Source of the DNA: an uncultured candidate division Zixibacteria bacterium
GTDB lineage: Bacteria; Zixibacteria; MSB-5A5; GN15; FEB-12
Direction of reading: 5' to 3'
NCBI GenBank assembly: GCA_963806185.1
Contig: CAWDXE010000004.1
Location: 436,883-500,882 of the forward strand
Length of the DNA: 64,000 nt
Under the pieces are notes generated by a model. It searched no databases. It saw only the letters and a program-made list of their open reading frames with translations, and was not told the origin of the DNA. A program made the position numbers and the translations under genes. How positions within the stretch are numbered: position 1 is the stretch's first letter; every line of letters begins with the position of its first letter. Of this stretch, positions 24,799-54,694 are shown piece by piece.

Positions 24799-27700
24799 TT
24801 ACTGGCAGCATGGGTCGGGGCCGAGAAGGAATAGGTACGAAATCATCCAGGTCAGATCGGATATATCAACCGAGTGATCGCAATCTATCGCCCCCGCCAG
24901 CAGGGGCTGCGTCAGCGTTCCGCCGAGAAACATGAAAGTGATCATCGACGTGAGATCGCCAATGTCAACGGTATGTGTACCGTCCAGATCACCGCAGGTG
25001 AAATTGTACCAGGTGAATGTCTGAGTCGGCGAATATGCCGACTCGAAGCCGGCCGAATCACTTGCCTTTACCCGCCAGTAGTACAGTCTGCCGCTGGCCA
25101 ATTCCGTCGTGGCCAGAGTCGCGGAATCCGTGAAAACGTCCTGAAGGAACGTTGTGAAATCGGTGAAATTCGAATTCTTCGACACATGAACGTGGTAGTA
25201 TTCGGGTGCACTCTCGATACTTGATGATACGGCCGCAGACCAGTCCAGGACAATGGCGGCGCCACCGAGTTCTGTGCCGTTAGTCGGCGCCAACGGTACC
25301 GGCGTGGCCGGCACTTCCGTATCGAGGACAAAGGTCGCCCGTGTCGACCAGGCGCTGGCATTTCCCGCCTTGTCGGATCGACGCGCCTGCCAGTACCAGC
25401 GACCATCGGGCAATATCTGAGGAGTGCCGAACTGCAAGGGGACGATTGAGTCAAAGACAATCGGGTCCCCTGCGAAGGTCGAATCCGGCGACAATTGTAC
25501 GGTCACGAATTCGGGCGCCACCTTCGGCGTTGTTCCGTTACTCACCAACGACATCTGGAACGGCTTTATCGTGACATAACCGCCGGTGGGAGAGTCCGGC
25601 GTCACTCCCTTCGGAGCGATATTGTCCACACCGATCTTGCGAATGACGCGCGGGAGGGCAGATGAATCGGCACCGACATACGCCCGTACCGCCCAATAAT
25701 AGACGCCGTCGCTTAGGGAATCCACCAAAGGCATGGCGAATGTCGTACCCTGGATACCGCCATATGTGCGCACGAGGGTGGTCATCGCCGCGTCGGTGGC
25801 AATCTGCACGCTGAACGAATCGCCAATACCCTGCCACTCGAATGAATAGATGCGGGAAGGAGCATACACAATCGTGTCCGGCGACAACAGCGTTGGAGTG
25901 GGCGATGAATTGGCGACATAAATGTTAACCGTGTCGCCGACTTCGAGGCCACCGGTACTGTGAGCCTTGACTTCTACCCGACTGGTCGAACCAGACGGCA
26001 CCTCGCTAGGAATCGAGATGGTGACCGAGAAAGTTGAGTCAAGACCCGGTCCGAGGGGCATGAAATAGGTCACTGGCGATATGGTCCAGGCTGAATCGCT
26101 GGCGACATTGACGATCACGTTATCCGTCGAATTGCCGAGATTTGCAATTGTCACCGGTATTGTCAGACTGGATGGCGAATCCACCGTATCTTCGTCAACG
26201 CTATTTACCGCGAGACCGTACAGTCGCTTCGTCAATACGCGTGAAGTGGCCGAACTTGCGAAGATGCTGTCGGTCATACTGGTAATTCGACAGGTAATCG
26301 CCTCACTCTGCCCGTACGTTGAATTCGACGGCACAGTAACGACCGCGTTGATCATTGCGGAGTCATTGGACGACAGGAGCACAACGGTATCCGCCACGAT
26401 CCCCATCCAACCGACCGAATCCGTCAGCCTGACCCTAATTGAATCCGGCGAGCCGAGATTTTTCACCCAGAAGGGAACGAGTATGATCTCCCCCGGCATC
26501 ACAGTGGTGTCGGGGAGGTCGGTAACTGCCAGCGCGTGATACTGGCCCGGCGTGTGGATACCGTCCGGCGTGAAGACCAGGGAAAACCGTTGCGGGCCCT
26601 GGGGAACATTGTAACCCGTCACTTTGGCCCGCCAGAGCCCGGCGGTCGGGCTATTCAGCTCCACCGTTTCAACATTGTTCAGATGGTCGGCGGTTCGAGT
26701 CGCCGGCAGCGCCGGCGCCGCGGCGCTCATTACCCACGGCGACCATTCGACGCCGTTGGGATCGATCAAGCGCAAATCAAGATCGTTGACCAGCGTCACG
26801 CCTGAAAAGGAAGTGGCTCCCGGATCGTCCCACGCCAGAGTGACTCGAATTCTGGTTGCCCCTGAAGGCACCGTCAGATCGTAGAAAGTCGCCGAGCCGG
26901 TTGCCATCGAGCCTTTAACATACGAGGGCTCACCGGCTGACACTTTCGTCACGGCCGCTAGGGCGTCGACCCGGCCGTAACCATACTGGAAGTCCGGTCC
27001 GATATTTCCCAGATCAGTAGCCGAGTTGATAAGCAGCGCCTTGACTGTAGAAGGGAGAAGCGTGTCATTTGGGAACAGTTGATCGTGTCGTTGCATGACC
27101 AATGCGATCACGCCGGACACGGCAGGCGCCGACATCGACGTCCCGCACATCACGGTATATCCTGAAACTTGCTTACAGCTGGTGACGCCGAAGTCGCTTG
27201 AACTCTGACAACCGGGGCCGACCACATCCGGCTTGAGACGACCGTCGTCTGTCGGACCCCAGGACGAGAATGATGTCATCGAACTGTTGTTGGAGTTGAC
27301 CGCCCCTACCGTGATTACGTTTTTAGCCGAAGCCAGCGGATCCGTTGTGTTATAGCTCCAGCCGAGCGAACCGCAATACGAAGAGCTGTTACCGCGTTGG
27401 TTCCCGGCCGACCAGACGGCGACAATCGGTGCACCGGCGTCGCCTCTGACGATATTGTCAATGGTCCCGCTGATCGCCCAGTAATTCCCCATGACCGATT
27501 CGCACGACGATTGGCTGGCAGGATCGCCTGGGCCGTAACCCCATGAATTCTGAGACACCCGGGCAGCATAACCGGCAATCGCGTTCTGGTAATCGTTGAA
27601 GGCCTCGGAGCCGGAACCGAACCATTGCTTAGTGAGCATTTGTGCGCCGGGCGCCATCCCCCGATAGGTACCCGAGGAGCCGGCCCCTGACCCCATGACG

Positions 27701-28548
27701 GTTCCGGCCACGTGGGTCGCGTGCGTGGAGAGCGCAGACGCATCAGTCTGAATCAGTCGCCCGCCGAAATCACCGTGCGTGGCGTCGGCACGGCCGCCAT
27801 CCCACTGGGCCAGCATCACTCCGCTGCCATCAAGGTTGTACGGTGCCGCTTGGACCGCGTCGGCGTTGATATTCTGTCGACTTGAATTGTTATCCTCAAT
27901 CGGCTCCGGCAGAGCCGGCTCCACGAAGAAGACTTGTTCAAGTTGAGGTAATTCAGCCACCTGGCCGATCGGGACGACTACGTCGATTGAGTGGGTCGTC
28001 GGTTCTACGCCGATTACCCGGGCCTGATGTGAGCCTTCCATCAGCTTGACGGCGGCACTCAGCGGCTCGTCACGGTGAAAGGCGACGGTCAATTGAATGC
28101 TGTCACCTGCCCGCGCCGCCCAGGGCGCATCACTTGGATCCCGCAAAACAGGCGAGAGCTTGTAGTCCGGCTGAATAAAATCCACCCAGCGGATACCGTG
28201 GCGCCGCATGACTTCGGTAGAAAGTCCGCTGGTGGCTCGGACTGTGTAGGCATAATTGGGTACGTATTGCAGCAATTCAATGCCGTCGTCGGCAAGTTGC
28301 GATTTCTGATCGTCCGACAACGGTCCGTCAAACTGCACAAGGAAGTGCTTGTTGTCGGTAGCAGCGGCGGCCATTGGCAAGGCGCGCATGATGCCAGTGC
28401 GAATCGTCCCACTGCTGAGATACAGAGAGTAGTCTGGTTGTGCCTGCGATGGCAATGAGCACAGCATCATTGCGACAATAGTAAGCGAGCAAATTCGTAT
28501 ATTACGCATACACGTGCGAGCCCTGAAGTAGTAGGTTGACATGGTCAC
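24799..28548 (-). CDS. Secreted S8 subtilase with Ig-like/FN3 repeats and C-terminal dockerin-like domain
   Basis: Catalytic triad WDGG / HATHVAGT / GTSMSAP. C-terminus CGDLDGTHTVDIGDLT...DISDLT...CCQ. Exact start uncertain (28548, 28542 or 28509). Confidence 0.9.
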   Translation of the reverse strand: MTMSTYYFRARTCMRNIRICSLTIVAMMLCSLPSQAQPDYSLYLSSGTIRTGIMRALPMAAAATDNKHFLVQFDGPLSDDQKSQLADDGIELLQYVPNYAYTVRATSGLSTEVMRRHGIRWVDFIQPDYKLSPVLRDPSDAPWAARAGDSIQLTVAFHRDEPLSAAVKLMEGSHQARVIGVEPTTHSIDVVVPIGQVAELPQLEQVFFVEPALPEPIEDNNSSRQNINADAVQAAPYNLDGSGVMLAQWDGGRADATHGDFGGRLIQTDASALSTHATHVAGTVMGSGAGSSGTYRGMAPGAQMLTKQWFGSGSEAFNDYQNAIAGYAARVSQNSWGYGPGDPASQSSCESVMGNYWAISGTIDNIVRGDAGAPIVAVWSAGNQRGNSSSYCGSLGWSYNTTDPLASAKNVITVGAVNSNNSSMTSFSSWGPTDDGRLKPDVVGPGCQSSSDFGVTSCKQVSGYTVMCGTSMSAPAVSGVIALVMQRHDQLFPNDTLLPSTVKALLINSATDLGNIGPDFQYGYGRVDALAAVTKVSAGEPSYVKGSMATGSATFYDLTVPSGATRIRVTLAWDDPGATSFSGVTLVNDLDLRLIDPNGVEWSPWVMSAAAPALPATRTADHLNNVETVELNSPTAGLWRAKVTGYNVPQGPQRFSLVFTPDGIHTPGQYHALAVTDLPDTTVMPGEIILVPFWVKNLGSPDSIRVRLTDSVGWMGIVADTVVLLSSNDSAMINAVVTVPSNSTYGQSEAITCRITSMTDSIFASSATSRVLTKRLYGLAVNSVDEDTVDSPSSLTIPVTIANLGNSTDNVIVNVASDSAWTISPVTYFMPLGPGLDSTFSVTISIPSEVPSGSTSRVEVKAHSTGGLEVGDTVNIYVANSSPTPTLLSPDTIVYAPSRIYSFEWQGIGDSFSVQIATDAAMTTLVRTYGGIQGTTFAMPLVDSLSDGVYYWAVRAYVGADSSALPRVIRKIGVDNIAPKGVTPDSPTGGYVTIKPFQMSLVSNGTTPKVAPEFVTVQLSPDSTFAGDPIVFDSIVPLQFGTPQILPDGRWYWQARRSDKAGNASAWSTRATFVLDTEVPATPVPLAPTNGTELGGAAIVLDWSAAVSSSIESAPEYYHVHVSKNSNFTDFTTFLQDVFTDSATLATTELASGRLYYWRVKASDSAGFESAYSPTQTFTWYNFTCGDLDGTHTVDIGDLTSMITFMFLGGTLTQPLLAGAIDCDHSVDISDLTWMISYLFLLGPDPCCQ

Positions 28549-28699
28549 CGAGTCTTTGCCCTAAGATAATGGACACAAACGACCTGTCAATTCTTATCTT
28601 GTTGTGCCCAAAAGAATTATGTCTACTTAACCGAACCAATACCTGTCCCTTTCCGTCAATTATTGCTATTATCGGGTAAAGGTAGGAAGCTTTGATTGT

Positions 28700-29173: not shown

Positions 29174-29178
29174 AAACA

Positions 29179-31758
29179 CTACCTGACCAGGAGCATTTTT
29201 CTCGAAAGCGTTCCTGAGTCTGCGGTGAGCTGGTAGAGGTAGATGCCGCTGGACACCTGCTGACCGAAATCATCTCGTCCGTCCCACGTGATCGCACAGG
29301 GCCCGGCCGGCCGGGTCGACTCTATGAGTTGACGAACCCGCTGACCTCGCGCATTAAATACGGCCAGACGAACTGAACTCTTTGTCGGCAGCTCAAAAGT
29401 GATGACGGTAGACGGATTGAACGGATTTGGATAGTTCTGGTTCAGTTCAAGCCGGGTGGGGAGATGCTCACCGCCCGTTTCTTCAGCGCTTGTAGCGCTC
29501 TCGACAATCTGGTTGGCGGAGAATTCCGAGCTGTTGCCGTTCAGGTCAGTGGCAACCGCAGTCAGAGTATCGCCTTCTACAACGTTAGTGAGCGTTACCG
29601 AATAGGCGCCTGTGTTATCCGCATATGTCGAGGCTACCCATAACCTGCCCTCACCTTTGCCGCCCGGGTCGGGGGAGGCGAGATATACGTCGATCAACGC
29701 CATCGGCGCCGAAGTCCCGCGCGCTTCGGTTGCGGTTGTGCTGGCAATAGTGGGGGCCGGCATGCTGCGCTGTGCCCTGTCCCGTGTGACAATACCCAGC
29801 GAATCATTCCCGAGAATCTCATTGTAACGGATCAGCACGGCATAGCTCTCGGCTCCGGAGACCACTATGCCGTGCCCGCGATTGAACGCAATGCGATTTC
29901 CGCACTCGGCCCGGTCGCCGCCGATACTACAATTGCGCGCACCGTCTGTCACGCAAATACCAATTCCCCTATTCGGAATCTTGAGATTGCCGTCGTAACC
30001 GACTCCGACATAATTGCCCTGGATGATATTGTCGCTCGTTCCCGCGCCGAACAGGTGAATTCCTCTGCCAAACTCGGCCACGACCGTATCAGTGCCGTTT
30101 CCGGAAATAACATTCCGTTCCGGTGCCGTGGTGCCGCCGATCAAATTGTGACGGGCCCCGTTTCCGATCGCGACACCGGTCGATTGATTCCTCATGCGTG
30201 CGCTGGCCGTCACGTCGAGTCCGATAACATTTCCGCTGACTCGATTATAAGTCGTCCCTTCATCAGAGATGAAGACACCGACCCCAAGCGGAAACACGTC
30301 GTCGCGATTGCCCGAGATTGTGTTGCCGCTCCCCGCGAGGCTTCCACCGATCAGATTGTGAGAAGCACCGTTGAAAATTCCCACGCCGGCGGCATTCGAA
30401 ATCGGCGAGGCTCCATTCATCGAGGGTCCAATCATATTTCCAGAAACTGCATTGTCATCGGTGCCGGGATCGGTCAACCGGACGCCGTATCCTGCATTGC
30501 CGCTGATGACGTTCATCTCACTGGAGGCGGTCCCGCCGATCTGTGTATGTGACGCCCCGTTGCTGACCGTAATCCCGTCACCCTCAATCCAGCCATTGTA
30601 TCGGTAGCCGAAACCCGTTCGATCGCTGCCGACATAGTTGTTCGTAATCGTCGTGAACATCGTGCCCGAACCGCTGACAAGAATGCCGGACAGCCCGTTG
30701 CCGGATACAATGTTGCGGGACGATGGCTCAGCCGTCCCCACCTGGGTATATTGAGCGCCGTTGGTGATGACAATGCCGTGCCCCATGTTGGGTGCGAGCA
30801 GATTTCCCGAGGCCTGCAATCCGATAATGTTGCCCAGGAGCTGAGTCGAATCGGTTCCCGATCCTTCGATGACGATGCCATCTCCGGAATTATACGAGAC
30901 GACATTGCCTTCGCCGGTATTCGGCCCGCCAATAATCGTACCGCGCGCCCCGGCAACTATGTGGATTCCCCCGAGTAGATTCCCAGGTCCATTCGTACCG
31001 CTCAAATCCGGACCGATACGATTGCCGGCGACAGTGTTGGCGTTTCCGCGATCGATCTCGACCCCCCATGTGAGATTACCGCTGATCAGATTCGGTTTGC
31101 CTGAACCGCCAATGTTATTGTGATGCGCCCCTTCCGAAACTCGAACTCCAATCTGATTTCCGTCGACAAATGTCCCCGGTACTCCGATGCCGATCCAGTT
31201 GTTCGTGAGAGCGTTGCCCGACGCCCCCTGGCCGGTAATCAGAATCGCCCCGCCGTCCGATACCTCCGTGCCGTTTTTCAGGAAGATACAACTATCGATC
31301 ACGTTGTCCCGGCCGGTGATCACAATGCCGTACCGTCGAGCTCGATGCACCGAAAATCCCGTGATGCCGTTGTCATCCCCGGCGAGGCCGATCGCAGACT
31401 CATACATTGCCAGTTCCAGCGCATCGATCACCGTCCCTTCACCGTGGATCGTCGTGCTGTCGCCGACTACGGTGAGCCTGCCGAGGGTGAGCTTGATCGT
31501 CGCGATATCCGCCCGACAGTAGATTGTATCTACAGCGGGGTTGGCATCGGCCTCCTCGATGGCTGCGCGAAGAGTACAATGTCCCGCCGCGTCTTCACAC
31601 ACGCCGTCCCCGACGACATCATCATGAGTGTCATCGCTGGAATTTATCTCGAAACGCGCCGACCGTGCGGAATCGGCGAAAATGGTCGCGCAAACGAGCA
31701 GCCATGCACAGTAACGGAGAACCGCGCAGGTGAGGAATTGGCGGCGAGGAGTTGTCAT
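29179..31758 (-). CDS. CSLREA-domain parallel beta-helix surface protein with T9SS-like/FlgD C-terminal domain
   Basis: CTLRAAIEEA, repeated N.IGG....N.ISGN units, C-terminus QNYPNPFNPSTVI...WDGRD...SSGIYLY...RKMLLVR. Confidence 0.85.
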   Translation of the reverse strand: MTTPRRQFLTCAVLRYCAWLLVCATIFADSARSARFEINSSDDTHDDVVGDGVCEDAAGHCTLRAAIEEADANPAVDTIYCRADIATIKLTLGRLTVVGDSTTIHGEGTVIDALELAMYESAIGLAGDDNGITGFSVHRARRYGIVITGRDNVIDSCIFLKNGTEVSDGGAILITGQGASGNALTNNWIGIGVPGTFVDGNQIGVRVSEGAHHNNIGGSGKPNLISGNLTWGVEIDRGNANTVAGNRIGPDLSGTNGPGNLLGGIHIVAGARGTIIGGPNTGEGNVVSYNSGDGIVIEGSGTDSTQLLGNIIGLQASGNLLAPNMGHGIVITNGAQYTQVGTAEPSSRNIVSGNGLSGILVSGSGTMFTTITNNYVGSDRTGFGYRYNGWIEGDGITVSNGASHTQIGGTASSEMNVISGNAGYGVRLTDPGTDDNAVSGNMIGPSMNGASPISNAAGVGIFNGASHNLIGGSLAGSGNTISGNRDDVFPLGVGVFISDEGTTYNRVSGNVIGLDVTASARMRNQSTGVAIGNGARHNLIGGTTAPERNVISGNGTDTVVAEFGRGIHLFGAGTSDNIIQGNYVGVGYDGNLKIPNRGIGICVTDGARNCSIGGDRAECGNRIAFNRGHGIVVSGAESYAVLIRYNEILGNDSLGIVTRDRAQRSMPAPTIASTTATEARGTSAPMALIDVYLASPDPGGKGEGRLWVASTYADNTGAYSVTLTNVVEGDTLTAVATDLNGNSSEFSANQIVESATSAEETGGEHLPTRLELNQNYPNPFNPSTVITFELPTKSSVRLAVFNARGQRVRQLIESTRPAGPCAITWDGRDDFGQQVSSGIYLYQLTADSGTLSRKMLLVR

Positions 31759-33905
31759 TTCAACAAAAGCATCTTTCGCGTAACCGCCTGGCCCCCAGAT
31801 TCCAGGCGATAGAAATATATGCCGGTCGCAACCGGACGTGAGAACTGATCCATACCATGCCAGAAAGAAGTGTGAGCCCCGGCCGTCTGCGGTCCGTCAA
31901 CCAATCGCGCCACCTCCTGCCCCAACAGGTTCAGGATCGACAGCGACACGGTACCGTCTGAAGGAAGAACGTAGTCGATGGTCGTCGAGGGGTTGAACGG
32001 ATTTGGATAGTTCGGAGCCAACACGATTTGAGACGGGAGGGATGACGAATGATCATTCGTCTCCGTCGGGATGCGCAGATCATAAACGTTGAGGGTGTGA
32101 CCACCCGAAGTAAAGAGAAGGTCATTCACGGCCACCAACATTGTGCCGGCCCGACCACCTCTATCGAGCAATAGCGGTAGCTGGTCGTCCCCGGGGGCGG
32201 GACGTTCAAAGATGCCGATACCCTCGTCGCCGATGCTGTACATCCGGTCCGATCCGAAGGCCACCTGACGGATATCGAGCGGAGGAAGTTCTGTGTGTAT
32301 CGGTACGTCCGCAGCCGAGAGATCCACAGTAGCCACGCGATCGCCCGAAAGCGCATAAAGGTACTTGGTGACATCGTCGTAGACGAGTGAAGTAACATTG
32401 CGCGCCACTCCCCAGGTCGCCTTGTTTTCCAGCCCATCGTTTGAGTTCCGGCGGTAGATGTACAGCTGACCCTTGTTGGTGGCCACCGCCACCCACTCTC
32501 GGGCACACACCGCGGCCGTGATGATTCCTTGCACAATGATGTTCGCCAATGGCTCGATCAACAAGGTATCCGATAACGAATACAGCGTGGCTCGAGTCCC
32601 GCCCCAGGTGAGCACAGTGTACTTGTCGTTGACGGAAAACTGATTTGCGGCGAACCCTTTCACCTTGGTTGTGTCGACGTCCAGATAGTTATCCAGGAAC
32701 AGCGAATCGAATTGATACCGGGAGAGGAAGATGGCCCCAACCGTGGGGAAGAAGCACAAAAGTCGCCCCATACTGTTGTCAAGTGAGGTGGCGCTTTTAA
32801 GCGGGACAAATAGTGACGTGTCCAGTTCCGGTTCACCGGTTGGGCCGACCGCGTAGATTTCAACCGGCCGACCGATCTGGCTCACATACAAACGATTATC
32901 AAAAAACTCGAGGTCTGTAATCGTCTGCGGCCCGGCATACGCCGGCTTCGGAGTGGTCGAAATATAAATCTGGTCCAGAGCCAGGTGTTGCAGGAAACCG
33001 CGATAATCGGAATAGAGCAGAACAATCGAGGTACCGGCCGCGAACATGTCCGGTTGGCCGCTGGCGTTGAAGGAGCTCTCCACCGGCGCGTGTGTAACAT
33101 GTCGATCCTTGCGACTCACGATGTCCATTACCGGAGCGGCCGGATCAATCGCCACAACAAGCGAATCAATAGTCAGAATCACTCTGGGGGCGATCGACAA
33201 CGCTATCGTATCGGCGGAAAAGTCAGGTCGGACAAGCAACAACTCTTTTCTTGCGGCCAGTCCGATGAGAATAGTCGTGTCGGTGATACAGAAGCGCGAT
33301 GCTTGAAAGGGGATCCAGACGACATCGCGCAATTCACCGAAATCCGCACCGGACACATCATAACGAAGTATGCCGTTATAATCGTCCAATACATACAGCG
33401 TATCAGCTCGACACTCGACTTGAATTGCATGGATAGCGGAAAAGTCGGAGTCGGCCGCTTGCGGGTGGGCATATTGCGTGAGCCGATAACGCCGCACGCC
33501 CTCGAAGCCCATGGCGCAGTAAAGACTCTGGCCGTGAAGCGCAAAATCCGTGTAGGGAACGCCGATATCTATCTGCCCGGCCAGCGTCAGAGTCGGCAAA
33601 TCACCGATGTTGATGACATACAGCACGTCACTTTTTGTCCGCACCATCAACATATTCCCGAACCGCTTCAATTGAGTTGGCGCAGAATTGAGAAATAAGT
33701 GATCTATCTGGGCATACTGACCAGTGGTCGGATCGGCCAGGGCGAGTGCCAATCCATCGTCGGTCGTTCCGATGAGAAAGGAATCCACGACCAGCACACA
33801 GCGGAATGATCCCCAGAGCAGGCTGTAATCCGGATCCGTTGGCACGGCACCCTGAGAGCCGCTCACCGCACAGAGGCTGATCAATATGGCGACCAGGCCT
33901 TTCAT
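31755..33905 (-). CDS. Secreted beta-propeller-like protein with T9SS-like/FlgD C-terminal domain
   Basis: Signal peptide, LVIVD-like beta repeats, C-terminus PNYPNPFNPSTTI...ATGIYFY...RKMLLLK. ATGA overlaps with both neighbours. Confidence 0.8.
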   Translation of the reverse strand: MKGLVAILISLCAVSGSQGAVPTDPDYSLLWGSFRCVLVVDSFLIGTTDDGLALALADPTTGQYAQIDHLFLNSAPTQLKRFGNMLMVRTKSDVLYVINIGDLPTLTLAGQIDIGVPYTDFALHGQSLYCAMGFEGVRRYRLTQYAHPQAADSDFSAIHAIQVECRADTLYVLDDYNGILRYDVSGADFGELRDVVWIPFQASRFCITDTTILIGLAARKELLLVRPDFSADTIALSIAPRVILTIDSLVVAIDPAAPVMDIVSRKDRHVTHAPVESSFNASGQPDMFAAGTSIVLLYSDYRGFLQHLALDQIYISTTPKPAYAGPQTITDLEFFDNRLYVSQIGRPVEIYAVGPTGEPELDTSLFVPLKSATSLDNSMGRLLCFFPTVGAIFLSRYQFDSLFLDNYLDVDTTKVKGFAANQFSVNDKYTVLTWGGTRATLYSLSDTLLIEPLANIIVQGIITAAVCAREWVAVATNKGQLYIYRRNSNDGLENKATWGVARNVTSLVYDDVTKYLYALSGDRVATVDLSAADVPIHTELPPLDIRQVAFGSDRMYSIGDEGIGIFERPAPGDDQLPLLLDRGGRAGTMLVAVNDLLFTSGGHTLNVYDLRIPTETNDHSSSLPSQIVLAPNYPNPFNPSTTIDYVLPSDGTVSLSILNLLGQEVARLVDGPQTAGAHTSFWHGMDQFSRPVATGIYFYRLESGGQAVTRKMLLLK

Positions 33906-36900
33906 TTGACCAGCACCATCTTTCGTGCCGACGTGTAGCTGCCCGCCTGAAGTTGATAAAAGTATACACCGGAGGCGATAGACGACCCGTCGAGGGTCAC
34001 CGTATAACTACCCGCGCTCCGTTCCTCATTGACAAGGCACTTCACCTGTTGTCCGAGGATGTTGAAGACGTCGAGCTTCACCATGGTTCGTCTCGGTACG
34101 GAAAAAGAAATGGCGGTCGTCGGGTTGAACGGATTGGGATAGTTCTGCTCCAGTGCAAAGGCAGCGGGGAGTGCGTCTCCGGGGTCGGGAGTGTCGGTGG
34201 GGATGGCCGGGTCAACGTATTGGAGGCTGTTGCGCGTATCCATGAACAGCCGAGCGGCGTTCTTGCCGCCGTGTGACGGAGCATTGAAATTCCAGACGTA
34301 CACCACACCGGATTCGCTGACCAGGACAAGTTCTACGAGCCCGTCGCCATCCATATCGTCAACGAGCGGCGTATACGGAGTCGAAAATACTCCCCTGGTT
34401 TCCGCGGGAGTCGCCACCGGCCACCCCGGCAGCAGGTTCATCTGGTGATCGAAAATGAAGATCTTTTCGGTGCCGGTGCCGGGCAGAATGTAACCCGACC
34501 GCATGATGAGTTCCGGTCGCCCATCGCCAGTGAGGTCGGCCGCGATCGGCGAACTCAGCGTCACACCAACGCGAATCGCCTCCCCAAATGGCCGGCCGCC
34601 TTTCACGACATATGGCGATCCGTCCGCTCTGAATATGTACACCACTCCGACATCGTACTCAAAGAAGCTGCAGATGACCTCTGGCGACCCATCTCCATCC
34701 AGGTCCGCCGCGGTAGGATAATTTCCTCTCCAACCGCCGACCTCCGGCAACTGGATCGGGAATCCGGGAACGGCGAACCGTCCCAGCGTCTTTGCCCAGA
34801 TGGTTCGGACGCCAAGGGAGTCATAACCGGTGGTAACAATCTCAGGCAATTGGTCCTGCGTCAAGTCGACCAGGACGGTGCCGTAAACTCCGGAAGCTTC
34901 AATCTGTATCGGACTGGCCGCCTTGAAAGCCGGCTGCCCAGTGCGCGAATCATAGATCCCCACACCGCCGCGCGGGATGAGCGACGAATAGCTGGCGATG
35001 ACTTCGTTGTAACCGTCGCCATTGAGATCCGCTGAGACGACGTTGTTTCCGCCCCAGAAGTATGATGGTGTCTCATACGGATTGATCGCCGCAAACCATC
35101 CCTCGAGTGAGTAAAAGTATGGCTGCCCGTTAAACTGATAGGCACACACATTTCCGCTTCCATCCATGCACATAACCACCGAATCGGCCGTCGGGCTGAG
35201 ACGTCCCACCGACACAGTGGCGTTTCCAAGGCCGCTGGATCCCATTTCCCGCATGATAGGCCAGCCCGCCGCCGAACTGCCGTCATACTTGATCGCCTCT
35301 ATGGTCGCATCGGTGGCAACGAGGATCTCATCGAGTCCGTCGTGATCCACATCATATATCGCCGCAACACCGCGACAGTCCAGGTCAAATAAGGTCGGAA
35401 ACCCGGTGACCGGACTACCGTCGCCGTGAAATACATTGATACCCTGCACCGTGCCGACAATAATCTCCTTAACGCCGTCGTGATCCAGATCGGCCACAAC
35501 CGGACTAAGACATCCGCGCCCGGTCAAGGGCTGTGGCCATCCCGACGCAAAGGCGCTGTTGATGTGCACAACCACAGTGTCGGCCAGCGTCTCCGCGCCG
35601 TAGTAACCGGTCAGAACTATGTCATAGTCTCCGCTGTCCAGTCCCGATGCTTCCCATGAAAAGGCCAGCGAATCGAAGTATTCCCCCGTGGACTGCATCA
35701 GCGTTGATTGCGTTGACGACGCCGTGAAGTAGGATAACGTCGTCGAATCGATATCCGGACCATAGGCGGTAATGTATATCGGTATGTGGAAATTGAATTC
35801 CTGGCCACTGGTCGGTGCAACAATGAGCAACTGTCTGTTGGGCACATAGGTAAACGTTACCGTCGAATAGTTGCCCAGCGCATCCGTGACACGCAGAGTC
35901 ACGTGGCCGGCTAGTTCAGGTTTCTCAAAAACTGTCGCCAACGAATCGACGGGCAGCGCCGCTCCCTCGGCGAGCGGCAACCAGGTTTCAGGAGCCGCGG
36001 CCGTCGAATATTCCAGCTTCCAGTAGCCCGCATATCCGTGAATTGCCGCCAGGCGGACTTGAGTCGCGCTGCCGTGACGGGATTGTTTGGTCGGCGAGAC
36101 AATGGAAATCCCCCCGTCCTGCAGGAGATCCAAAGAACGGGCAATATTGAGATAGCCGCTGCCGGAAATCGTGTCGGGTCCCGGAAGATAGGAGCTGTCG
36201 TCGCGCGGATCGATCATGTCGGTAGCGCCCGCCTTCAGCACCGACTCCAGTCGACTGATGGACAGGTCGGGCCGGATTCCCAACACCAAGGCAGCAGCTC
36301 CGCATACAGTCGGTGCGGCCATCGACGTGCCATCTGACAGGTAATACAGCGAATCCGCTCCGATAATCCGCACGCCCGGTTCACCAGCTGCGGCGTACAT
36401 GTCGGTCCCGGCGGCCCGCAGCGACAGGATGTCAAGTCCCGGCGCCACAATGTCAATGTGTGCTCCGAAAGTTGAGAAACTGGTCATAAATCCGCGCGAA
36501 TCGCCGGCTCCAACTGTGAAGACACTCGGAATCGCCGCCGGATACCAGCGCGTATTGTCGCCGGTATTTCCGGCCGCTACGACTACCATGACGCCGTTGA
36601 TCCGGGCAAACTCGACGGCATCGGACAGTATGACCGACTCGTACGGAGTGCCCCAGCTGATATTGATGATCTGAGCTCCGGCATTCACCGCGTAGACGAT
36701 TCCGGCCGCCCCCACTGCGGTGGTAGCATTGGGTCGAATCTTGACGGCCATGATGCAGGCTTCCGGCGCCACGCCGACGATTCCCCGGCCGTTGGCCGCC
36801 GCGGCAATGATGCCCGCGATATGCGTTCCGTGACCCGATATATCGGACGGATCATTGTCGCCAACAATATTGGTGATGGACGAAGTGTTGCCGGAGACGT

Positions 36901-37588
36901 CGTACCCCAGAGTATCGTCGACATAACCGTTGCGATCGTCGTCGATGCCGTTGCGCGGAATCTCGTCGGGATTCGACCAGAATTGACCTTGCAGCTCCGG
37001 ATGGGTAGGGTCGACGCCGGTGTCAATATCGGCCACGACGACTCTGGTCGAAGCGGCCGGCGCTGATCCATAAAGCGGATACCGGCCGAGATCCATGCCG
37101 GCGACACCTGTTTTGAGAATGAGCTTATCGTTATTCGTGCCCGGTTTTCGGTCGATGCCGAGATACTCCTGACCGCTGTTATGAAGATACCACTGATTCG
37201 TAAACAGCGAGTCGGTCGGCACATCGAAGAACTCGAGCCAGTACTCCGGCTCTACTACTTCCACGTTCGCCGGCCCCAGTCGGGTTCGCAGTTGCTCGGC
37301 AGTGAGGGAAGTGTCGGTCGAAACAAACCGATAGTATCGTTCCCAAATCTGACCGCCCAGCTTGGCATCGGTGACCGCCGTCGAGACTCGCTCCAGACTC
37401 TGGTTCGCCGTCAGGGATTGGGTCACCACCTCGGCCCGAACACCTTCTACTAAACGCACCAAGTAGACCCCGGGGAGTCGTCCGCTTTGCGCCTGAGTTG
37501 GACCGTATAGAAGTGCGCCGAGTAGCACCAGAGAGAAGATAGGTATCATCGAATGAATTTGCTCGGCCGGCTTGCGTTTTTGCTGCAT
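33902..37588 (-). CDS. Secreted S8 subtilase with FG-GAP/VCBS repeats and T9SS-like C-terminal domain
   Basis: Triad DIDTG / HGTHIAG / GTSMAAP, repeated ADLDxDGxxE units, C-terminus QNYPNPFNPTT...RKMVLVK. Confidence 0.9.
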   Translation of the reverse strand: MQQKRKPAEQIHSMIPIFSLVLLGALLYGPTQAQSGRLPGVYLVRLVEGVRAEVVTQSLTANQSLERVSTAVTDAKLGGQIWERYYRFVSTDTSLTAEQLRTRLGPANVEVVEPEYWLEFFDVPTDSLFTNQWYLHNSGQEYLGIDRKPGTNNDKLILKTGVAGMDLGRYPLYGSAPAASTRVVVADIDTGVDPTHPELQGQFWSNPDEIPRNGIDDDRNGYVDDTLGYDVSGNTSSITNIVGDNDPSDISGHGTHIAGIIAAAANGRGIVGVAPEACIMAVKIRPNATTAVGAAGIVYAVNAGAQIINISWGTPYESVILSDAVEFARINGVMVVVAAGNTGDNTRWYPAAIPSVFTVGAGDSRGFMTSFSTFGAHIDIVAPGLDILSLRAAGTDMYAAAGEPGVRIIGADSLYYLSDGTSMAAPTVCGAAALVLGIRPDLSISRLESVLKAGATDMIDPRDDSSYLPGPDTISGSGYLNIARSLDLLQDGGISIVSPTKQSRHGSATQVRLAAIHGYAGYWKLEYSTAAAPETWLPLAEGAALPVDSLATVFEKPELAGHVTLRVTDALGNYSTVTFTYVPNRQLLIVAPTSGQEFNFHIPIYITAYGPDIDSTTLSYFTASSTQSTLMQSTGEYFDSLAFSWEASGLDSGDYDIVLTGYYGAETLADTVVVHINSAFASGWPQPLTGRGCLSPVVADLDHDGVKEIIVGTVQGINVFHGDGSPVTGFPTLFDLDCRGVAAIYDVDHDGLDEILVATDATIEAIKYDGSSAAGWPIMREMGSSGLGNATVSVGRLSPTADSVVMCMDGSGNVCAYQFNGQPYFYSLEGWFAAINPYETPSYFWGGNNVVSADLNGDGYNEVIASYSSLIPRGGVGIYDSRTGQPAFKAASPIQIEASGVYGTVLVDLTQDQLPEIVTTGYDSLGVRTIWAKTLGRFAVPGFPIQLPEVGGWRGNYPTAADLDGDGSPEVICSFFEYDVGVVYIFRADGSPYVVKGGRPFGEAIRVGVTLSSPIAADLTGDGRPELIMRSGYILPGTGTEKIFIFDHQMNLLPGWPVATPAETRGVFSTPYTPLVDDMDGDGLVELVLVSESGVVYVWNFNAPSHGGKNAARLFMDTRNSLQYVDPAIPTDTPDPGDALPAAFALEQNYPNPFNPTTAISFSVPRRTMVKLDVFNILGQQVKCLVNEERSAGSYTVTLDGSSIASGVYFYQLQAGSYTSARKMVLVK

Positions 37589-42201: not shown

Positions 42202-42218
42202 GTTTCTTTTCTCCCTGC

Positions 42219-43766: not shown

Positions 43767-44024
43767 AGATTCTCTCCTTTTCTGTGATGGTAGGTCAACC
43801 ACGATATGTGACGAGGCTTTGGTCATCTTGTTTCTGTCGCCCAATATCACTCGTCCTGGGCCGACTCGCAAGTGACTATTGCGAACCGCCCGAACATTCA
43901 GTGGCGCTCGCTCGTTGAATCCGAAGGCGGGTTGCGCGATGCGATCACAAACGGAGATTGCAAAATGGCCCCGCAGGTCATATATTGCATTGTCCAATAT
44001 GCAAATATCATCGAAGTGTGCTCG

Positions 44025-48051: not shown

Positions 48052-50433
48052 CTATTGACAGGCGGGCAGAGCCTGGAAGCTGATAAACAGATTGTCGATT
48101 AGGTTCGTCAGGTCGCCGATGTCGACCTGGTTGCCTGCGTCCCCGTCGCAATTAGCTTCTTCCTTGCAGCACAACGGCGTGAAACTGATGAACAGATTGT
48201 CGATCAGCACCGTCAGGTCGCCGATATCGACGCCATCACCTGCCCCACAGTCAACATTTCCGGTCAGGCCAACACAGCAGCCGGCACCGGCCACTGCGAC
48301 GTCATCGACGTACCACCCTTCCTCCACCGTGGCGCCGTCGGAGGCAAACCGGAAGGCGACTTGCACCACTCCACTATGGCCGGCCAGATCAAACGTCTCC
48401 AGTGTCCACGCCTGTTGGTTTGAAAAACACGGAGTCAGGGGCGCGAAATTGCCGTCCGTCACATCAACCACGCGATATGGGTATCCGCCATCGGGGGTCA
48501 ATTGCGTCCAGTTGTAACCATCGGAGGAGATCATCACCACGCCGCCGTCCCAGGCTGTCGTGTCATCGAATATTTCGGCGGCCATCCAGTGCCACATCTT
48601 CAGTTGCGGATCGCTCGGCAGGAGAAATGGAGGAGAGATGAGCCAGGCGTCCACCATGTTTGCATACGAGCCGCTACCGGCGCCGCCCATTTTCCAGCTC
48701 TGCGTGCCTCCGTGGACCCGATTGGTCTCGAGATGCCACTGATCGATGAAGGCCGGTGTTGGCGTCTGGTGTGACCAGTACCCCTGCCCGCTTTCTGCAT
48801 CCTCAGTCAACCCGGCGGTATTGCCGGCAAACAGCAGGATAGTGTCGGCCGAAGAGTACCCTCCAGCCGCCACGATGTTGAGCGCCACCAGCGCTGTATG
48901 CGGATCCGGACATCCTGGAGCAAATTGCAGCCTGAAGGGAGTCAGCGATGTCCCTTCACCCCGCCAGGGGATATCATTGTAATTTGCTGTAGGATTAATA
49001 ACGGTAACATACGGGTCGGACGACGTCACCGAAACTGAGATACCCGTAGCATCGAGGCCCGTATTACCCAGTGTGACGGTCAGGTCGACAGTTTCGCCGG
49101 CCTCAGCGTGCCCATCCCCATTTCCGTTGAATTCGGTCAACGTGCTGGCATGACGCTCCAAGTAGGGTGTGTTGAGAGGGTGCAGGTGAGTCGTCATAGA
49201 TTCGATATCCGCCGGACAATGATTGTTCGGCTCCCAGTAACAATACAGGCTGTCGAGCACGTACCACGCTGTCGCGGTGCCTCCCCATCCATAGTTCATG
49301 TGAAATTCAGGCTTGCCATTGCTGTCGCGCCAGCCGTCGCACACAATTGCGTGTCGGCTGATAGTATACAGAATGACCCGGCTGGCATTGATTTCCTCCT
49401 GAATAAGGGAGAACCACCCGGACAAGTCGTGCAGACTGCGGTATTCCTTGCGTGCGTCAGGTGCGTATCTGAAGTAGTTCGTGTATACCTCTGGTGCGAT
49501 ACTCGTATACGCCCCGGAGGCGCAACTTCCGTAATCCATATCAAACGCCACCCCCACTTCGTATGACAACTCAGCCAGCGCCGCCTGCTGTACCGTCGTG
49601 CAGCCACCGGGACAGGAATCCGGCATATTGGCCCAGTCATACGGATCGGAGAAATCAGCGGTCAAATCCTGGCTTGGCGTCGAGCCGCCGCAGGAATTGT
49701 CGCCTGCCCAGGTGTAGGTGTGACTGCCGACACCCGTCGTCGGCCAATTCCAGTATTTCATGATTTGCGCCGCCGCCGTAGCCACACAGCCGACGACCGT
49801 CGTTTTGCCGCTGTCACCCACTGGACACAGGTTATTATAAGGTGCCCGTTGTTTCCAGCCGGTAGTCGTAAGTGGGCCTACTGATGCGAACGGCATCTTC
49901 TTGGCGAACATGCGCGCCTTGAATTGGTCATTGCTGATCAGAAGTTCGTCCCAGTGTGCCCGGTGCTGTCTACTGAATACCGCGTCACCGGCAGGCGGTT
50001 GCGGCGCCTCGAGACTGCCAAACTGCCGGACATAATCGCCATAAAGGAGCGAGAAGGACTCGCTGATCATGGCAATCACGCCTCCCTCCTGTAAGCTGTC
50101 CAGATTCGTCTCGTCCGAATACATCTTCACCGGCGACATTTCCTTGAGGACCGGTACAAGAACAAACCCCCGAGGTGCGATGTCAAACCATCTCGCCACC
50201 ACCGTGTCGCCCGAGTATATGTCATTGGACGTGATTATTTGCGGATTTGACTCTCCGGCCCAAGCTCCGGTGAATGCCACCTGTTGGGTGAGCCAGTTCT
50301 GACAAACCTGCTGCATTTCCTCCTGGGAGGCAACCTCGCCTTTGACACCTGACACTGCTACAAAGGCCAGTGCCAGAAACGCGATCGTTGTCGGCAGGGC
50401 ATAACTACGGAGAAGTGTGCGCCCGAACTTCAT
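48052..50433 (-). CDS. C10 (streptopain-like) cysteine peptidase with propeptide, accessory beta domains and Cys-rich dockerin
   Basis: VVGCVATAAAQIMKYW, HAIVCDG, HMNYGWGG. ATG 50433 follows GGAGGA. C-terminus CCVGLTGNVDC...LPACQ. Confidence 0.9.
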   Translation of the reverse strand: MKFGRTLLRSYALPTTIAFLALAFVAVSGVKGEVASQEEMQQVCQNWLTQQVAFTGAWAGESNPQIITSNDIYSGDTVVARWFDIAPRGFVLVPVLKEMSPVKMYSDETNLDSLQEGGVIAMISESFSLLYGDYVRQFGSLEAPQPPAGDAVFSRQHRAHWDELLISNDQFKARMFAKKMPFASVGPLTTTGWKQRAPYNNLCPVGDSGKTTVVGCVATAAAQIMKYWNWPTTGVGSHTYTWAGDNSCGGSTPSQDLTADFSDPYDWANMPDSCPGGCTTVQQAALAELSYEVGVAFDMDYGSCASGAYTSIAPEVYTNYFRYAPDARKEYRSLHDLSGWFSLIQEEINASRVILYTISRHAIVCDGWRDSNGKPEFHMNYGWGGTATAWYVLDSLYCYWEPNNHCPADIESMTTHLHPLNTPYLERHASTLTEFNGNGDGHAEAGETVDLTVTLGNTGLDATGISVSVTSSDPYVTVINPTANYNDIPWRGEGTSLTPFRLQFAPGCPDPHTALVALNIVAAGGYSSADTILLFAGNTAGLTEDAESGQGYWSHQTPTPAFIDQWHLETNRVHGGTQSWKMGGAGSGSYANMVDAWLISPPFLLPSDPQLKMWHWMAAEIFDDTTAWDGGVVMISSDGYNWTQLTPDGGYPYRVVDVTDGNFAPLTPCFSNQQAWTLETFDLAGHSGVVQVAFRFASDGATVEEGWYVDDVAVAGAGCCVGLTGNVDCGAGDGVDIGDLTVLIDNLFISFTPLCCKEEANCDGDAGNQVDIGDLTNLIDNLFISFQALPACQ

Positions 50434-50796
50434 GTATCCTCCACGTGACCGTTTGGTAAGTACTAATATCAAAGTATAGTGAGCACAGAATATGTCAATT
50501 ACTCTTCGTGATAACGAATACCGGCAGGCCCATTTTTTTGGATAGATATCAGGAGTGCTTTTGTATGGCTTCGGTCTTGGCTCCTCTAACAAATGGAGGG
50601 TCGTCACAGGCGGCTGTATAGCAAAAAGGGGCTCATTATTGCTTGCCTGTAAGAATTCCAGATTCGACTTGATCTTTGCGGACCCAACAGGTAGCCTTTA
50701 GCACTTAGCCGACGCAAGGTTACCGGAAAATCCGGTGGTCGTTTACCAATCTCGTAAAACATCAAGGCTCGCGCTTGGGCGAACATGGAGGTTATC

Positions 50797-52144: not shown

Positions 52145-52156
52145 ATCGCGACCGGC

Positions 52157-52184
52157 AAAATACCCGTTTGCTTCAGAGTGTCAA
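52157..52184 (-). promoter_or_regulatory. Putative sigma70 promoter of tRNA-His
   Basis: TTGACA-N16-TATTTT followed by a GC-rich discriminator, 12 nt before G1. Confidence 0.55.
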
Positions 52185-52260
52185 GGCTTTTGACTGCGTC
52201 GTCGCCGCCCGCGTGCACGGCTAGGTCAATTGGGCAGAACCAGCTTAACGACTACGGTTC

Positions 52261-52596
52261 TCAGGTGCAACTGCTGCAACCACCACCGGTCCCGCAATTG
52301 CCCGATGGCTTACCGGCTGATATCACATAGCCGCTGCCAAACTCTCGGGTGACATAGTCGATATTGATATCCCCCAACTGCGTAATGTACTCATTTACCC
52401 GGGGATCAATCCAGGCAATAACCCCGTTCGACTCCAACTTCTCCAAACCGTCGATTGACTCTTCCAGAGCCATTCCCAGCGAGGGGCCGCTTCACCCGAA
52501 ACCCTGGAAGAAAATGATGAGATTGTTCTTCTTATTGGGTTCGAAATCAAAAACCTTCTTCAATTCTTCACTGGCGCTATCAGTAATGACGAGCAT
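52261..52596 (-). CDS. HesB/IscA-like selenoprotein (Sec35)
   Basis: ATG 52596 follows AAAGGA. MLVITDSASEELKK...FFQGFG-TGA(52492-52494)-SGPSLGMALEE continues in frame into ORF 52261..52473, which ends NCGTGGGCSSCT. Confidence 0.85.
52456..52472 (-). promoter_or_regulatory. Candidate bacterial SECIS hairpin
   Basis: UGGCUCU-GGA-AGAGUCA. The G-starting apical loop begins 27 nt after the in-frame UGA. Confidence 0.6.
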
Positions 52597-52682
52597 GCGT
52601 TATCATCCTTTCTGTCCCTGCCCTGAATATAACAACTTAGATCGCTGACTCGACAAAAAGATTCACCCCAAAACGTGTCATC

Positions 52683-52720
52683 AAAAATGACCCCTGCCGG
52701 CAATTCCGGCCGACAGGGGC
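52683..52720 (-). terminator. Rho-independent terminator
   Basis: CCCCTGTCGGC...GCCGGCAGGGG hairpin followed by TCATTTTT. Confidence 0.6.
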
Positions 52721-52743
52721 TAAGCTGTTACTCGACTTGAGAT

Positions 52744-53811
52744 TTATTGGCAGGAGGGGAGGGGCGTGAAGTTCAAGAAAAGGTTGTCAATCAAAGCCGT
52801 GAGATCGCCGATATCGATGTTATTCCCGGCATCGCCGTCGCAGTTTGCCTCCCCCGGGCAGGCAAGCGGCGTGAAGGTGAGAAACAGATTATCGATTAGA
52901 GCAGTCAGATCGCCGATATCAACAGCGTCCGAAGAGTCGAAATCCACGTTGCCGACTGTTGCAATACAGCAACTGCCGTCTGTCACCGTGACCTTCACGA
53001 TTTCGTCATCACTCAAAGCGCCATCCGAGGCCGAAAAAGTAATGAAGAACTCGCCAACCTGGCTGCCGTCCGGAGTGAACGTGAAGTCGCCGGTGCCATC
53101 GCCATTATCGGTGAAACCCGCGTTCGCCGGCAATGGGGCCGCCACCAGATTCGGAATGGTACCATCCTGATCACTCGCAGTTATCGTGAATTGAAGTGTA
53201 TTGCCAATGATCACACTTTTTGAGCCGATTGACGCCAGGACGGGCGGGTGGGGGACGATCACCTCCGTCATTGTGACGCTGGTCGTATAGATGAAATCGC
53301 CGGTGTTAAACCCGTTATTGTTGGCGGCGTTGCCGGCCGCATAAAAGGTTATAGCTCCGCTTCCTGCCGTCAACGGGGCCGCCCATTTGACTATCCAGCC
53401 GGGCGCCTGATTCGCGACACCGGGATTAGTCCCCGCCGCGGTGTGCTTCACATATTTGCGCCCACTCGGCGGCAAAGATATCTGCGTGCGGAGCGGATCC
53501 GCGTTGATCCAATTTCCGACCGGATTATTAGCGGCATCCAGCACGGTCATCTCGAAGCCCCAGCGACTTTGACCGGTTCTGGCGAGATCAATGGTAATAT
53601 CCACCGTATCTCCGGCCGTATACGTCAACGGCCCGCCTAATGACATTGACCCGCCCGGCGCATTTGCGGGATTGGTAAGGTGGCAATTGGTGCACAACCC
53701 TTCTCCGGGTCCTCCTGTCACGGCGTCCGGCGGACCACCAGAAAAAGCCCACGCGACTGTTCCCGTGACGAACACCACAAGGCCGACCGTCGTTACAATT
53801 TTGGCTTTCAT
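52744..53811 (-). CDS. Secreted Reeler/choice-of-anchor V-like protein with CxxCH, Ig-like repeat and Cys-rich dockerin
   Basis: ATG 53811 follows AAGGAGAGG. Motifs SGGPPDAVTGGPGEGLCTNCH and WAAP...ITFYAAGNAANNNG...GDFIY. C-terminus CCIATVGNVD...LPSCQ. Confidence 0.8.
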   Translation of the reverse strand: MKAKIVTTVGLVVFVTGTVAWAFSGGPPDAVTGGPGEGLCTNCHLTNPANAPGGSMSLGGPLTYTAGDTVDITIDLARTGQSRWGFEMTVLDAANNPVGNWINADPLRTQISLPPSGRKYVKHTAAGTNPGVANQAPGWIVKWAAPLTAGSGAITFYAAGNAANNNGFNTGDFIYTTSVTMTEVIVPHPPVLASIGSKSVIIGNTLQFTITASDQDGTIPNLVAAPLPANAGFTDNGDGTGDFTFTPDGSQVGEFFITFSASDGALSDDEIVKVTVTDGSCCIATVGNVDFDSSDAVDIGDLTALIDNLFLTFTPLACPGEANCDGDAGNNIDIGDLTALIDNLFLNFTPLPSCQ

Positions 53812-53978
53812 CGAGCCTCTCCTTTTGGTCTTGATGGCTGTCGCCCGACGAGAGGCGAAGGCCACCACAGGTTAATTTCGGCCCGTGTGCGGCGTCACGG
53901 CGAGTATTTGGCAGTAGTCTGGTGATTAGGTCCCTGTTACAGAGAGTGCCTGACCGCTCAATCCGTGCGGCCGGTAAC

Positions 53979-54011
53979 AAAAAAAACCGGTCGACTCTCG
54001 GTCAACCGGTT
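53979..54011 (-). terminator. Rho-independent terminator
   Basis: AACCGGTTGAC-CGAGA-GTCGACCGGTT followed by a T run. Confidence 0.8.
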
Positions 54012-54040
54012 CTCAAAATTTCATCGCACCAAGCAGGAGA

Positions 54041-54694
54041 TTACTGACAGCTCGGCAAAGGCGCAAAAGTAATAAACAGATTGTTGATCAGCGCCGTCAG
54101 ATCGCCGATGTCGACGTTGTTGCCGGGATCACCGTCGCAATTGGCCTCACTCGCGCAGCAAAGCGGGGCAAACGTGATGAAAAGATTGTTGATGAGCGAG
54201 GTCAGGTCGCCGATATCCACCGCGTCGAGCGGCGAACAGTCGACATTGCCAACCGTCGCTATGCAGCACCCGGAGCCGAAGTTCTGCCAGTAACCCGCAT
54301 TCACTTTGTAACTTGTGGAGGCACTCAATCCGGCCGCCGTCTGGCCGACCGTCGCATTGAGTACGTAGTTCGTCGACGTGCCGCGGTTGCCGCCGGCCGA
54401 GATAACCTGCCACTTAATCTGTTCACCGCTGAGAGGGGTACTGACCGCCTCTGCCTCGGGCGGCGCTGCCGTGACCTCCGGCAGAACCGGTTGCTGGTCA
54501 GGAGCGAGCGTTTGCCCGGCGGGCGTCGGTAGGACTCCTGACGCTGCAGGCGCAGAAGACGTTGTCGCGGATTTCGGCGTGATTGCCCGGGGGACGGCAT
54601 TCATGCGCTCGCCCTTCTCCCTGGCGTCAACCATGTTTCCGCCAATCAGGATGGCGACGGCGACAATCGCGACAATGCGTGAGGAGTTGTTCAT
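54041..54694 (-). CDS. Small secreted protein: Pro/Ala linker, short beta-rich module, Cys-rich dockerin
   Basis: ATG 54694 follows GGAGAG. Signal peptide, WQVISAGG...YVLNATVGQ...AGYWQ, then CCIATVGNVDC...LPSCQ. Confidence 0.8.
   Translation of the reverse strand: MNNSSRIVAIVAVAILIGGNMVDAREKGERMNAVPRAITPKSATTSSAPAASGVLPTPAGQTLAPDQQPVLPEVTAAPPEAEAVSTPLSGEQIKWQVISAGGNRGTSTNYVLNATVGQTAAGLSASTSYKVNAGYWQNFGSGCCIATVGNVDCSPLDAVDIGDLTSLINNLFITFAPLCCASEANCDGDPGNNVDIGDLTALINNLFITFAPLPSCQ

Follow-up and report, generated by a model that had tools for sequence, protein, structure and literature searches.

The window analyzed here, a 64,000-nucleotide stretch of contig CAWDXE010000004.1 from an uncultured candidate division Zixibacteria bacterium, encodes five predicted secreted proteins that end in the same duplicated module, and three of them are peptidases. 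Does the module gather proteases into a dedicated degradation machine, or does it serve proteins of many kinds? The initial annotation of the window, which took the module for a dockerin, favored an extracellular protein-degrading counterpart of the cellulosome, a "peptidase-some", and offered a lineage-wide anchoring tag as an alternative. The tails are dockerins, and the genome encodes candidate cohesin partners, 12 of which carry the C-terminal tail of type IX secretion system (T9SS) substrates. By the available tests, the system of Zixibacteria appears to be a phylum-wide, T9SS-linked set of dockerins and cohesins rather than a peptidase-some.

The tails of the five window proteins are dockerins

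All five minus-strand open reading frames (ORFs) reported in the initial annotation are present, and the Pfam matches agree with its assignment of three peptidases to different catalytic classes. The S8 subtilase (24799..28548, E = 6e-41), in which the catalytic-site motifs were located, has PPC and immunoglobulin (Ig)/fibronectin type III (FN3)-like domains and a C-terminal dockerin at 24802-25002. The M43 metallopeptidase (37756..39651, E = 2e-6), with the motif HETGH and a PKD domain, ends in a dockerin at 37759-37962. Both its peptidase and its dockerin had been recognized; the cohesin-like domain just before the dockerin (37918..38394) had been overlooked. This domain was detected with a hidden Markov model (HMM) that was seeded with six Pfam-cohesin regions from other parts of the genome and then iterated; it belongs to cohesin alignment A2, the profile of which matches cohesins from the Protein Data Bank (PDB) with an E-value of 2.2e-5. 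The C10 cysteine peptidase (48052..50607, E = 1.6e-51), which probably starts at Met59, contains a MAM-like domain and a dockerin at 48055-48270. The fourth protein (52744..53868, 374 residues) combines a choice-of-anchor V domain (NCBIfam, E = 7e-29) with one CxxCH motif, an Ig/cadherin-like domain, and a dockerin at 52747-52962; its Reeler-like character rests on a weak Pfam match (E = 0.006). The fifth, small protein (54041..54694) has a hydrophobic N-terminus, a low-complexity linker, a conserved domain of about 55 residues and of unknown function, and a dockerin at 54044-54259. Its ORF spans 54041-54796 (251 residues) and has no match to a Pfam family; the deposited protein of 217 residues starts at 54694.

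Each of the five tails is formed by two copies of a loop ending in D-I-(G/S)-D-L and followed by a helix. The Pfam model Dockerin_1 (PF00404) matches none of them at E ≤ 0.01; other members of the tail family do match it. Because the model misses the window tails, their fold was tested by other routes. A profile of 95 tails matches PDB dockerins with a best E-value of 2.4e-7, and the HMM of the tails had no matches among shuffled ORFs, which served as a control. In the AlphaFold model of the C10 tail (pLDDT 95), helices are formed by residues 16-28 and 51-63, and its top Foldseek matches are all dockerins, with TM-scores of 0.77-0.82 and a root-mean-square deviation of 1.7 Å to clostridial dockerins; the Foldseek E-values are weak, 0.011 and up, for a domain of only 72 residues. 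By their duplicated loop-helix and their sequence and fold homology, the five tails are type I-like dockerins, as the initial annotation had proposed. Two to five cysteines are present in 89 of the 95 aligned domains, and an I-G pair precedes the last loop aspartate in most dockerins of the genome.

Dockerin cargo is not enriched in peptidases

The HMM seeded with the five tails found 88 proteins in the first round and, at convergence, 90 proteins that contain 97 of the domains in this genome, which is 82% complete. The module is positioned at most 15 residues from the C-terminus in 85 of the 90 proteins, and 72 pass a crude test of N-terminal hydrophobicity, a test that does not amount to signal-peptide prediction. 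The Pfam scan covered all 90 at thresholds of 0.01, 1e-4, and 1e-5, and each peptidase match that was counted is below 1e-5. Fifteen are peptidases: seven of family S8, two of M6, and one each of C10, M1, M12, M28, M43, and M64. Three further proteins contain an HExxH motif, and one of these matches a putative metalloprotease model, which brings the count to 18. No Pfam glycoside hydrolase (GH) family was matched in any of the 90; the initial annotation had noted no such enzyme among the cargo in the window. Since peptidases are the only recognized hydrolases, the displayed enzyme set leans towards protein. Forty-two cargo proteins have no Pfam family besides the dockerin, and hidden enzymes among them are therefore possible. 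Among the remaining cargo proteins are propellers of the FG-GAP and SBBP types, three C-type lectin/beta-helix proteins, a CAP protein, FN3 proteins, lamin-tail proteins, and a 3033-residue Ig/cadherin repeat protein, whose Pfam matches to DUF807 and HrpB4 were rejected as repeat noise with no passing stretch. A cytochrome c7-like protein with five CxxCH motifs (L068:17946-19331, minus strand), a cupredoxin-like protein (L025), and a GSDH-family dehydrogenase (L067) also end in dockerins and are possibly surface redox proteins.

The T9SS-tailed proteins, the other outward-bound class of this genome, served for comparison. An iterated HMM collected 66 of them; the flagellar protein FlgD and two proteins that also bear a dockerin were dropped. 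The remaining 63 were all examined for HExxH, and the Pfam scan covered 62 of them. Seven of the 63 are Pfam peptidases, one of them PorU itself, and the motif raises the count to 10. The dockerin cargo is not enriched in peptidases relative to this class, whether Pfam peptidases are compared (15 of 90 against 7 of 63, Fisher p = 0.36) or the HExxH proteins are added (18 of 90 against 10 of 63, p = 0.67). The three peptidases among the five window proteins are a mild local over-sample (p = 0.03-0.05).

These counts bear on the proposal that dockerins gather proteases of different classes on a scaffold to form a dedicated protein-degrading complex. The eight peptidase families, which account for 15 of the 48 cargo proteins with another Pfam family, and the lack of GH matches would suit such a complex, as would an S8 protein with three cohesin-like domains, four dockerins, and a T9SS tail. 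However, at least 80% of the cargo is not recognizably peptidase, the enrichment over T9SS-tailed proteins is absent, an outcome that the initial annotation had named as a refutation, and no scaffold lacking a catalytic domain was found with more than two cohesins in one reading frame. A peptidase-some is thus very unlikely. Because only a fifth of the roughly ninety proteins look like proteases, the dockerin is likely a general tag; of the two readings offered initially, the lineage-wide anchoring tag fits best, and the protein-degrading analogue of the cellulosome is not supported.

Candidate cohesin partners, many with T9SS tails

The Pfam cohesin model has seven matches in the genome, three of them above the cut-off. 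The iterated cohesin HMM retrieved 25 proteins; run on stop-to-stop frames, it detected 28 domains with a threshold of E ≤ 1e-4 and 31 with E ≤ 0.01. Twelve of the 25 proteins have a T9SS tail, eight a dockerin, one both, and six neither; several of the last group are pieces of frameshifted genes. The count of 12 tails was obtained with our own HMM, and the type A sorting domain TIGR04183 is above its cut-off on two of the cohesin proteins. The largest number of cohesins per frame is three, in an S8 peptidase, and one tailed protein of 1648 residues has two. The long multi-cohesin scaffoldin sought as the partner of the dockerins was not found in the 82% complete genome, in which some cohesin genes are split by frameshifts and very divergent cohesins may escape detection; instead, the cohesins are dispersed, with one to three copies per protein.

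The simplest candidate anchor is a protein of 286 residues that consists of a signal sequence, a cohesin, and a T9SS tail and matches PF00963 above the cut-off. In the set of its 120 best homologs, which counts the protein itself and whose other members are 37-76% identical to it, 119 have both modules. Its predicted structure (pLDDT 91) matches cohesins in Foldseek with an E-value of 5e-10 and a TM-score to the target of 0.84; its sequence identity to PDB cohesins is 12-22%. The cohesin fold is thus assigned to the 286-residue protein by model and profile, and to the wider set by profile alone (E = 2.2e-5). The predicted complex of its cohesin with the C10 dockerin and two calcium ions scored 0.10 against a mark of 0.32; only this one pair was folded, without controls, and the result is used neither for nor against docking.

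Several cohesin loci are more elaborate. In the S8 protein with three cohesins (L069:1-4863, plus strand), the peptidase is followed by alternating dockerins (four) and cohesin-like domains (three) and by a T9SS tail, so that cargo and scaffold are joined in one chain. Two cohesin frames and a T9SS tail at C7:619805-621218 (L063) apparently belong to one frameshifted gene and are located on the opposite strand inside what appears, from neighbors recognized by eye, to be a flagellar gene cluster. Similar adjacent broken frames at C6:191450-193969, which were not joined, suggest further genes with two or three cohesins. A cluster of cohesin and T9SS-tail genes (L049 and L050, C6:174174-198766), several of them apparently frameshifted, lies directly upstream of the gene of the 3033-residue dockerin-tailed repeat protein.

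The cohesin proteins that bear dockerins raise the question of whether they polymerize head to tail into an extracellular mesh, which T9SS-tailed cohesins would tether and single-dockerin cargo would decorate and cap. The genome contains the arrangements cohesin-dockerin, dockerin-cohesin-dockerin, and triple repeats; these dual proteins, 8 of the 25, include the M43 peptidase of the window and a 256-residue cohesin-dockerin protein, and the 3033-residue Ig/cadherin-repeat protein is among the cargo. Dockerins, however, outnumber cohesins about three to one (approximately 97-100 against 28-31), and therefore most chains would be capped. A matrix of this kind is quite improbable.

Protein bodies occur with either tag

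The dockerin and the T9SS tail are nearly exclusive of each other: a T9SS-like tail is also present on only 2 of the 90 dockerin proteins. Homologous bodies are found with either tag when bodies are compared within the genome with both tags masked, and the clearest pairs are 33-64% identical. For three neighbors on C3, the identity of the dockerin-tailed body to T9SS-tailed paralogs is 44-47% over about 400 residues and 55% over about 210 residues. The body of an FN3 protein is 64% identical over 225 residues between tags, and two metallopeptidase pairs are 32-33% identical. In the window, a protein with a T9SS-like tail (5221..7815, minus strand) has a body 37-41% identical over about 700 residues to those of two dockerin-tailed paralogs encoded at other sites of the genome, which indicates a tail swap. 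The region 1-7815 of the minus strand contains a run of such paralogous proteins of about 850 residues, which match no family in Pfam or NCBIfam and end in a long form of the T9SS-like tail. Genome-wide, eight of these paralogs are T9SS-like-tailed and three dockerin-tailed, and one is apparently split into frames 2810-4846 and 2245-3252.

Exchange of tags also extends to distant relatives. A search of 13 distant genomes yielded five proteins with the choice-of-anchor V domain, spread over four genomes; four of these proteins end in a T9SS tail and one in a divergent dockerin. The C10 body is present in three of the 13, twice T9SS-tailed and once with a hydrophobic-plus-basic tail, and the S8 body in two, once with a divergent dockerin and once with neither tag. 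The end of the latter S8 homolog (L096:1243-3801, plus strand) gives the impression of the end of an outer-membrane barrel.

Dockerins and cohesins co-occur across the phylum

Of 150 other Zixibacteria genomes sampled, 147 have matches to the dockerin profile. The cohesin profile was run on 45 of these 150 genomes, picked to include the three dockerin-negative genomes and those with low counts; it matches 42 and misses the same three that the dockerin profile misses. In two of the three, Pfam finds no cohesin and at most one doubtful dockerin match. All three keep SprA, and their T9SS tails number 115, 128, and at least 150, compared with 41 in the present genome by the same model. The three belong to only two families and therefore represent few independent events. 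The densities of dockerins and cohesins are correlated over 19 families (rho = 0.62).

Genomes of families f9 and f14 (L090, L095, and L097-L116) contain 38-90 copies each of a second dockerin subtype, which differs in its helix residues and is likely to represent a separate binding specificity. The profile of this subtype was run on 20 genomes, and the counts of 150 and 111 are lower bounds.

Export machinery

SprA, PorU, and PorV-family proteins are encoded in the genome and are above their NCBIfam cut-offs (TIGR04189, NF033709, and NF033707), and the PorU gene adjoins a PorV-family gene. Seven PorV-family matches are distributed over about six loci (C3, C4, and C5), several directly beside genes with T9SS-like tails, which suggests dedicated carrier-cargo pairs.

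The T9SS moves folded proteins and requires a folded C-terminal domain (PMC9251779, PMC10994853), and therefore cargo without the tail needs a carrier or another gate. The genome has two secretins, one in a PilMNOPQ-like run and the other with an ATPase, a platform, and two pilin-like genes. The second cluster (L079:10523-18534, minus strand), which also includes a PilM-like gene and has scores between those of the type II secretion and type IV pilus models, has a dockerin gene about 2 kb away. Because its ATPase, platform, and two pilin-like genes are all below both the type II and the type IV pilus cut-offs, a type II-like route for the dockerin cargo is conceivable. A search for the type II protein GspK over 46 genomes was uninformative, with no match here and 27 weak ones elsewhere, which are mostly frames of 500-1200 residues and apparently off-target.

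A proposed general tag for surface display

The explanation that we favor, and hold to be somewhat probable, is that the dockerin is a general surface-display tag for many kinds of secreted protein, which would dock on the cohesins of proteins predicted to be exported and anchored by a T9SS-like system. Cargo would be exported by Sec, and its calcium-loop, cysteine-rich dockerin would fold outside the cytoplasm, probably with disulfides. SprA would export the cohesin proteins, and PorU, as in Bacteroidota, would cut their tails and attach them to the outer membrane; cutting and attachment by PorU are known from Porphyromonas (PMC11205867). Calcium-dependent docking would then join mostly one or two cargo proteins to each anchor, with dual-module proteins acting as branch points. 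The result would be a mixed display of peptidases, adhesin-like Ig/cadherin repeats, lectin and beta-propeller proteins, and redox proteins. Tail-less cargo might cross the outer membrane in a complex with a cohesin protein or by a secretin system separate from the T9SS.

Several observations weigh against this explanation. Localization, attachment, and docking are predictions from sequence, and no export route for the tail-less cargo was identified. A search for the motor ring protein GldN/PorN gave no match; it used one model, for this subunit of the GldKLMN/PorKLMN motor and ring, without a positive control on the 82% complete genome. The 8 of the 25 cohesin proteins that carry their own dockerin could pair internally. 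The dockerin is kept by 111 of the 120 best C10 homologs (query included), with a T9SS tail on three and neither tag on six, and by all 15 homologs of the small protein (query included); because these two proteins keep it in nearly all close homologs, swapping is occasional. The third of the apparently empty genomes has three cohesin and two dockerin Pfam matches, one pair about 600 bases apart. Both profiles derive from this genome, and phylogenetic distance may therefore inflate the correlation and the co-absence. A trade-off between dockerins and T9SS tails over 37 genomes was rejected: its rho changed from -0.68 to -0.38 when the second subtype was counted (family-level p = 0.12), and the trend is gone without the three dockerin-less genomes. 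It was largely an artefact, since the first profile undercounted the second subtype in f9 and f14.

Some of these points would suit an absence of surface docking, in which the dockerin is either a C-terminal module stabilized by calcium and disulfides or a tag for periplasmic retention, and the cohesin-fold domains serve generally as Ig-like spacers. The similarity to known cohesins is as distant as the 12-22% identity given above, and a periplasmic location would suit the five-CxxCH cytochrome as well as the lack of a recognized cargo route. By contrast, the co-occurrence and co-absence of the two modules across the phylum, the conservation of a protein with little beyond a cohesin and a T9SS tail, and the swaps between dockerin and T9SS tail argue for docking, and we consider the spacer alternative unlikely. 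A further variant, which is only rather unlikely, treats the dockerin as a second T9SS export address: tail-less proteins would bind a cohesin-tail carrier in the periplasm and pass SprA as a complex. If so, a single carrier, small and conserved, would serve both the export and the anchoring of about ninety different proteins across Zixibacteria.

The dockerin tag (90 proteins here) appears to be a commoner route than the T9SS tail (63 here) for the secreted proteins of Zixibacteria. If binding is true, the system would be a phylum-wide, non-cellulolytic case of cohesin-dockerin docking in an outer-membrane bacterium. For the design of enzyme assemblies, it would also supply an anchor that is small, conserved, and easy to express, together with a cysteine-rich dockerin of new specificity. 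The outer-membrane passage of tail-less proteins is a testable question that the system poses.

Neighboring genes in the window

Between the S8 and M43 genes, the minus strand encodes three neighboring proteins with the T9SS type A tail (29179..37588), the alternative tag; one is an S8 peptidase, and they fall within the comparison class. Two separate pairs of adjoining M16 peptidase-family genes, at 7975-11645 and 40747-43997 on the minus strand, have neither a dockerin nor a T9SS tail. A Met-zincin gene at 21094-23790 raises the protease density of the window. A sensor-kinase-like gene and a sigma-54 response-regulator-like gene, recognized from their translations, converge on the C10 gene (43872-47922, plus strand). 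A complete rRNA operon (16S, two tRNAs, 23S, 5S) at 55668-60954 on the plus strand is positioned directly upstream of the small dockerin gene.

Comparison with known systems

No literature on a cohesin-dockerin system in Zixibacteria, or on hitchhiking through the T9SS, was found in a search that omitted most subscription papers and was partly judged by title or the start of the abstract. Like known T9SSs, the genome has homologs of the translocon, carrier, and sortase and about 63 tail-bearing proteins. Known T9SS substrates need a C-terminal domain of their own; 88 of the 90 dockerin proteins here are without one.

Non-cellulosomal cohesin and dockerin proteins have been described in ANME archaea (Chadwick et al. 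2022, PMC9012536), which resemble Zixibacteria in having many dockerin proteins and non-cellulolytic cargo. They differ in their archaeal envelope, in the binding proteins of ABC transporters that are their typical cargo, and in scaffoldin-like proteins with up to five cohesins. The "planctosome" of freshwater Planctomycetes (Nemodlikiaceae; Andrei et al. 2019, PMC6461901) is a proposed cohesin-dockerin complex for the degradation of polypeptides. Because it was proposed earlier, the idea of a peptidase-some is already in print; a protease complex is thus neither new nor favored by the data. Its M12 metallopeptidases and lamin-tail domains both also occur in the cargo of this genome, and its proposed anchor is a lamin-tail protein, in place of the T9SS substrate here.

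A cellulosome-like complex has been predicted, from genomes only, in Ca. Stygibacter of the Cloacimonadota (Williams et al. 2021, PMC8542988). That report describes dockerin-tailed peptidases as here (S8 and C25 there) and a cohesin protein whose C-terminal domain is proposed to mediate surface attachment. It also describes a single scaffoldin of 3,755 residues, with tandem cohesins and a carbohydrate-binding module, and GH18 and GH57 cargo. By contrast, the Zixibacteria system is phylum-wide, and this genome has about 90 cargo proteins, no GH, and dispersed cohesin proteins with one to three copies.

The dockerin and cohesin folds are the same as in the type I pairs of clostridial cellulosomes, especially the single-cohesin anchors OlpA and OlpC of Clostridium thermocellum (PDB 4fl4, 3ul4, 4dh2, and 6kgc). 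Both systems have many dockerin proteins, fewer cohesins, and single-cohesin anchors. Unlike in clostridial cellulosomes, no GH cargo and no long scaffoldin were found, most dockerins of this genome contain two to five cysteines and an I-G pair ahead of the last loop aspartate, and the host has an outer membrane. The anchors also differ: the T9SS tail here takes the place of the S-layer homology or sortase signal of clostridial cellulosomes, as these are described in PMC9012536.

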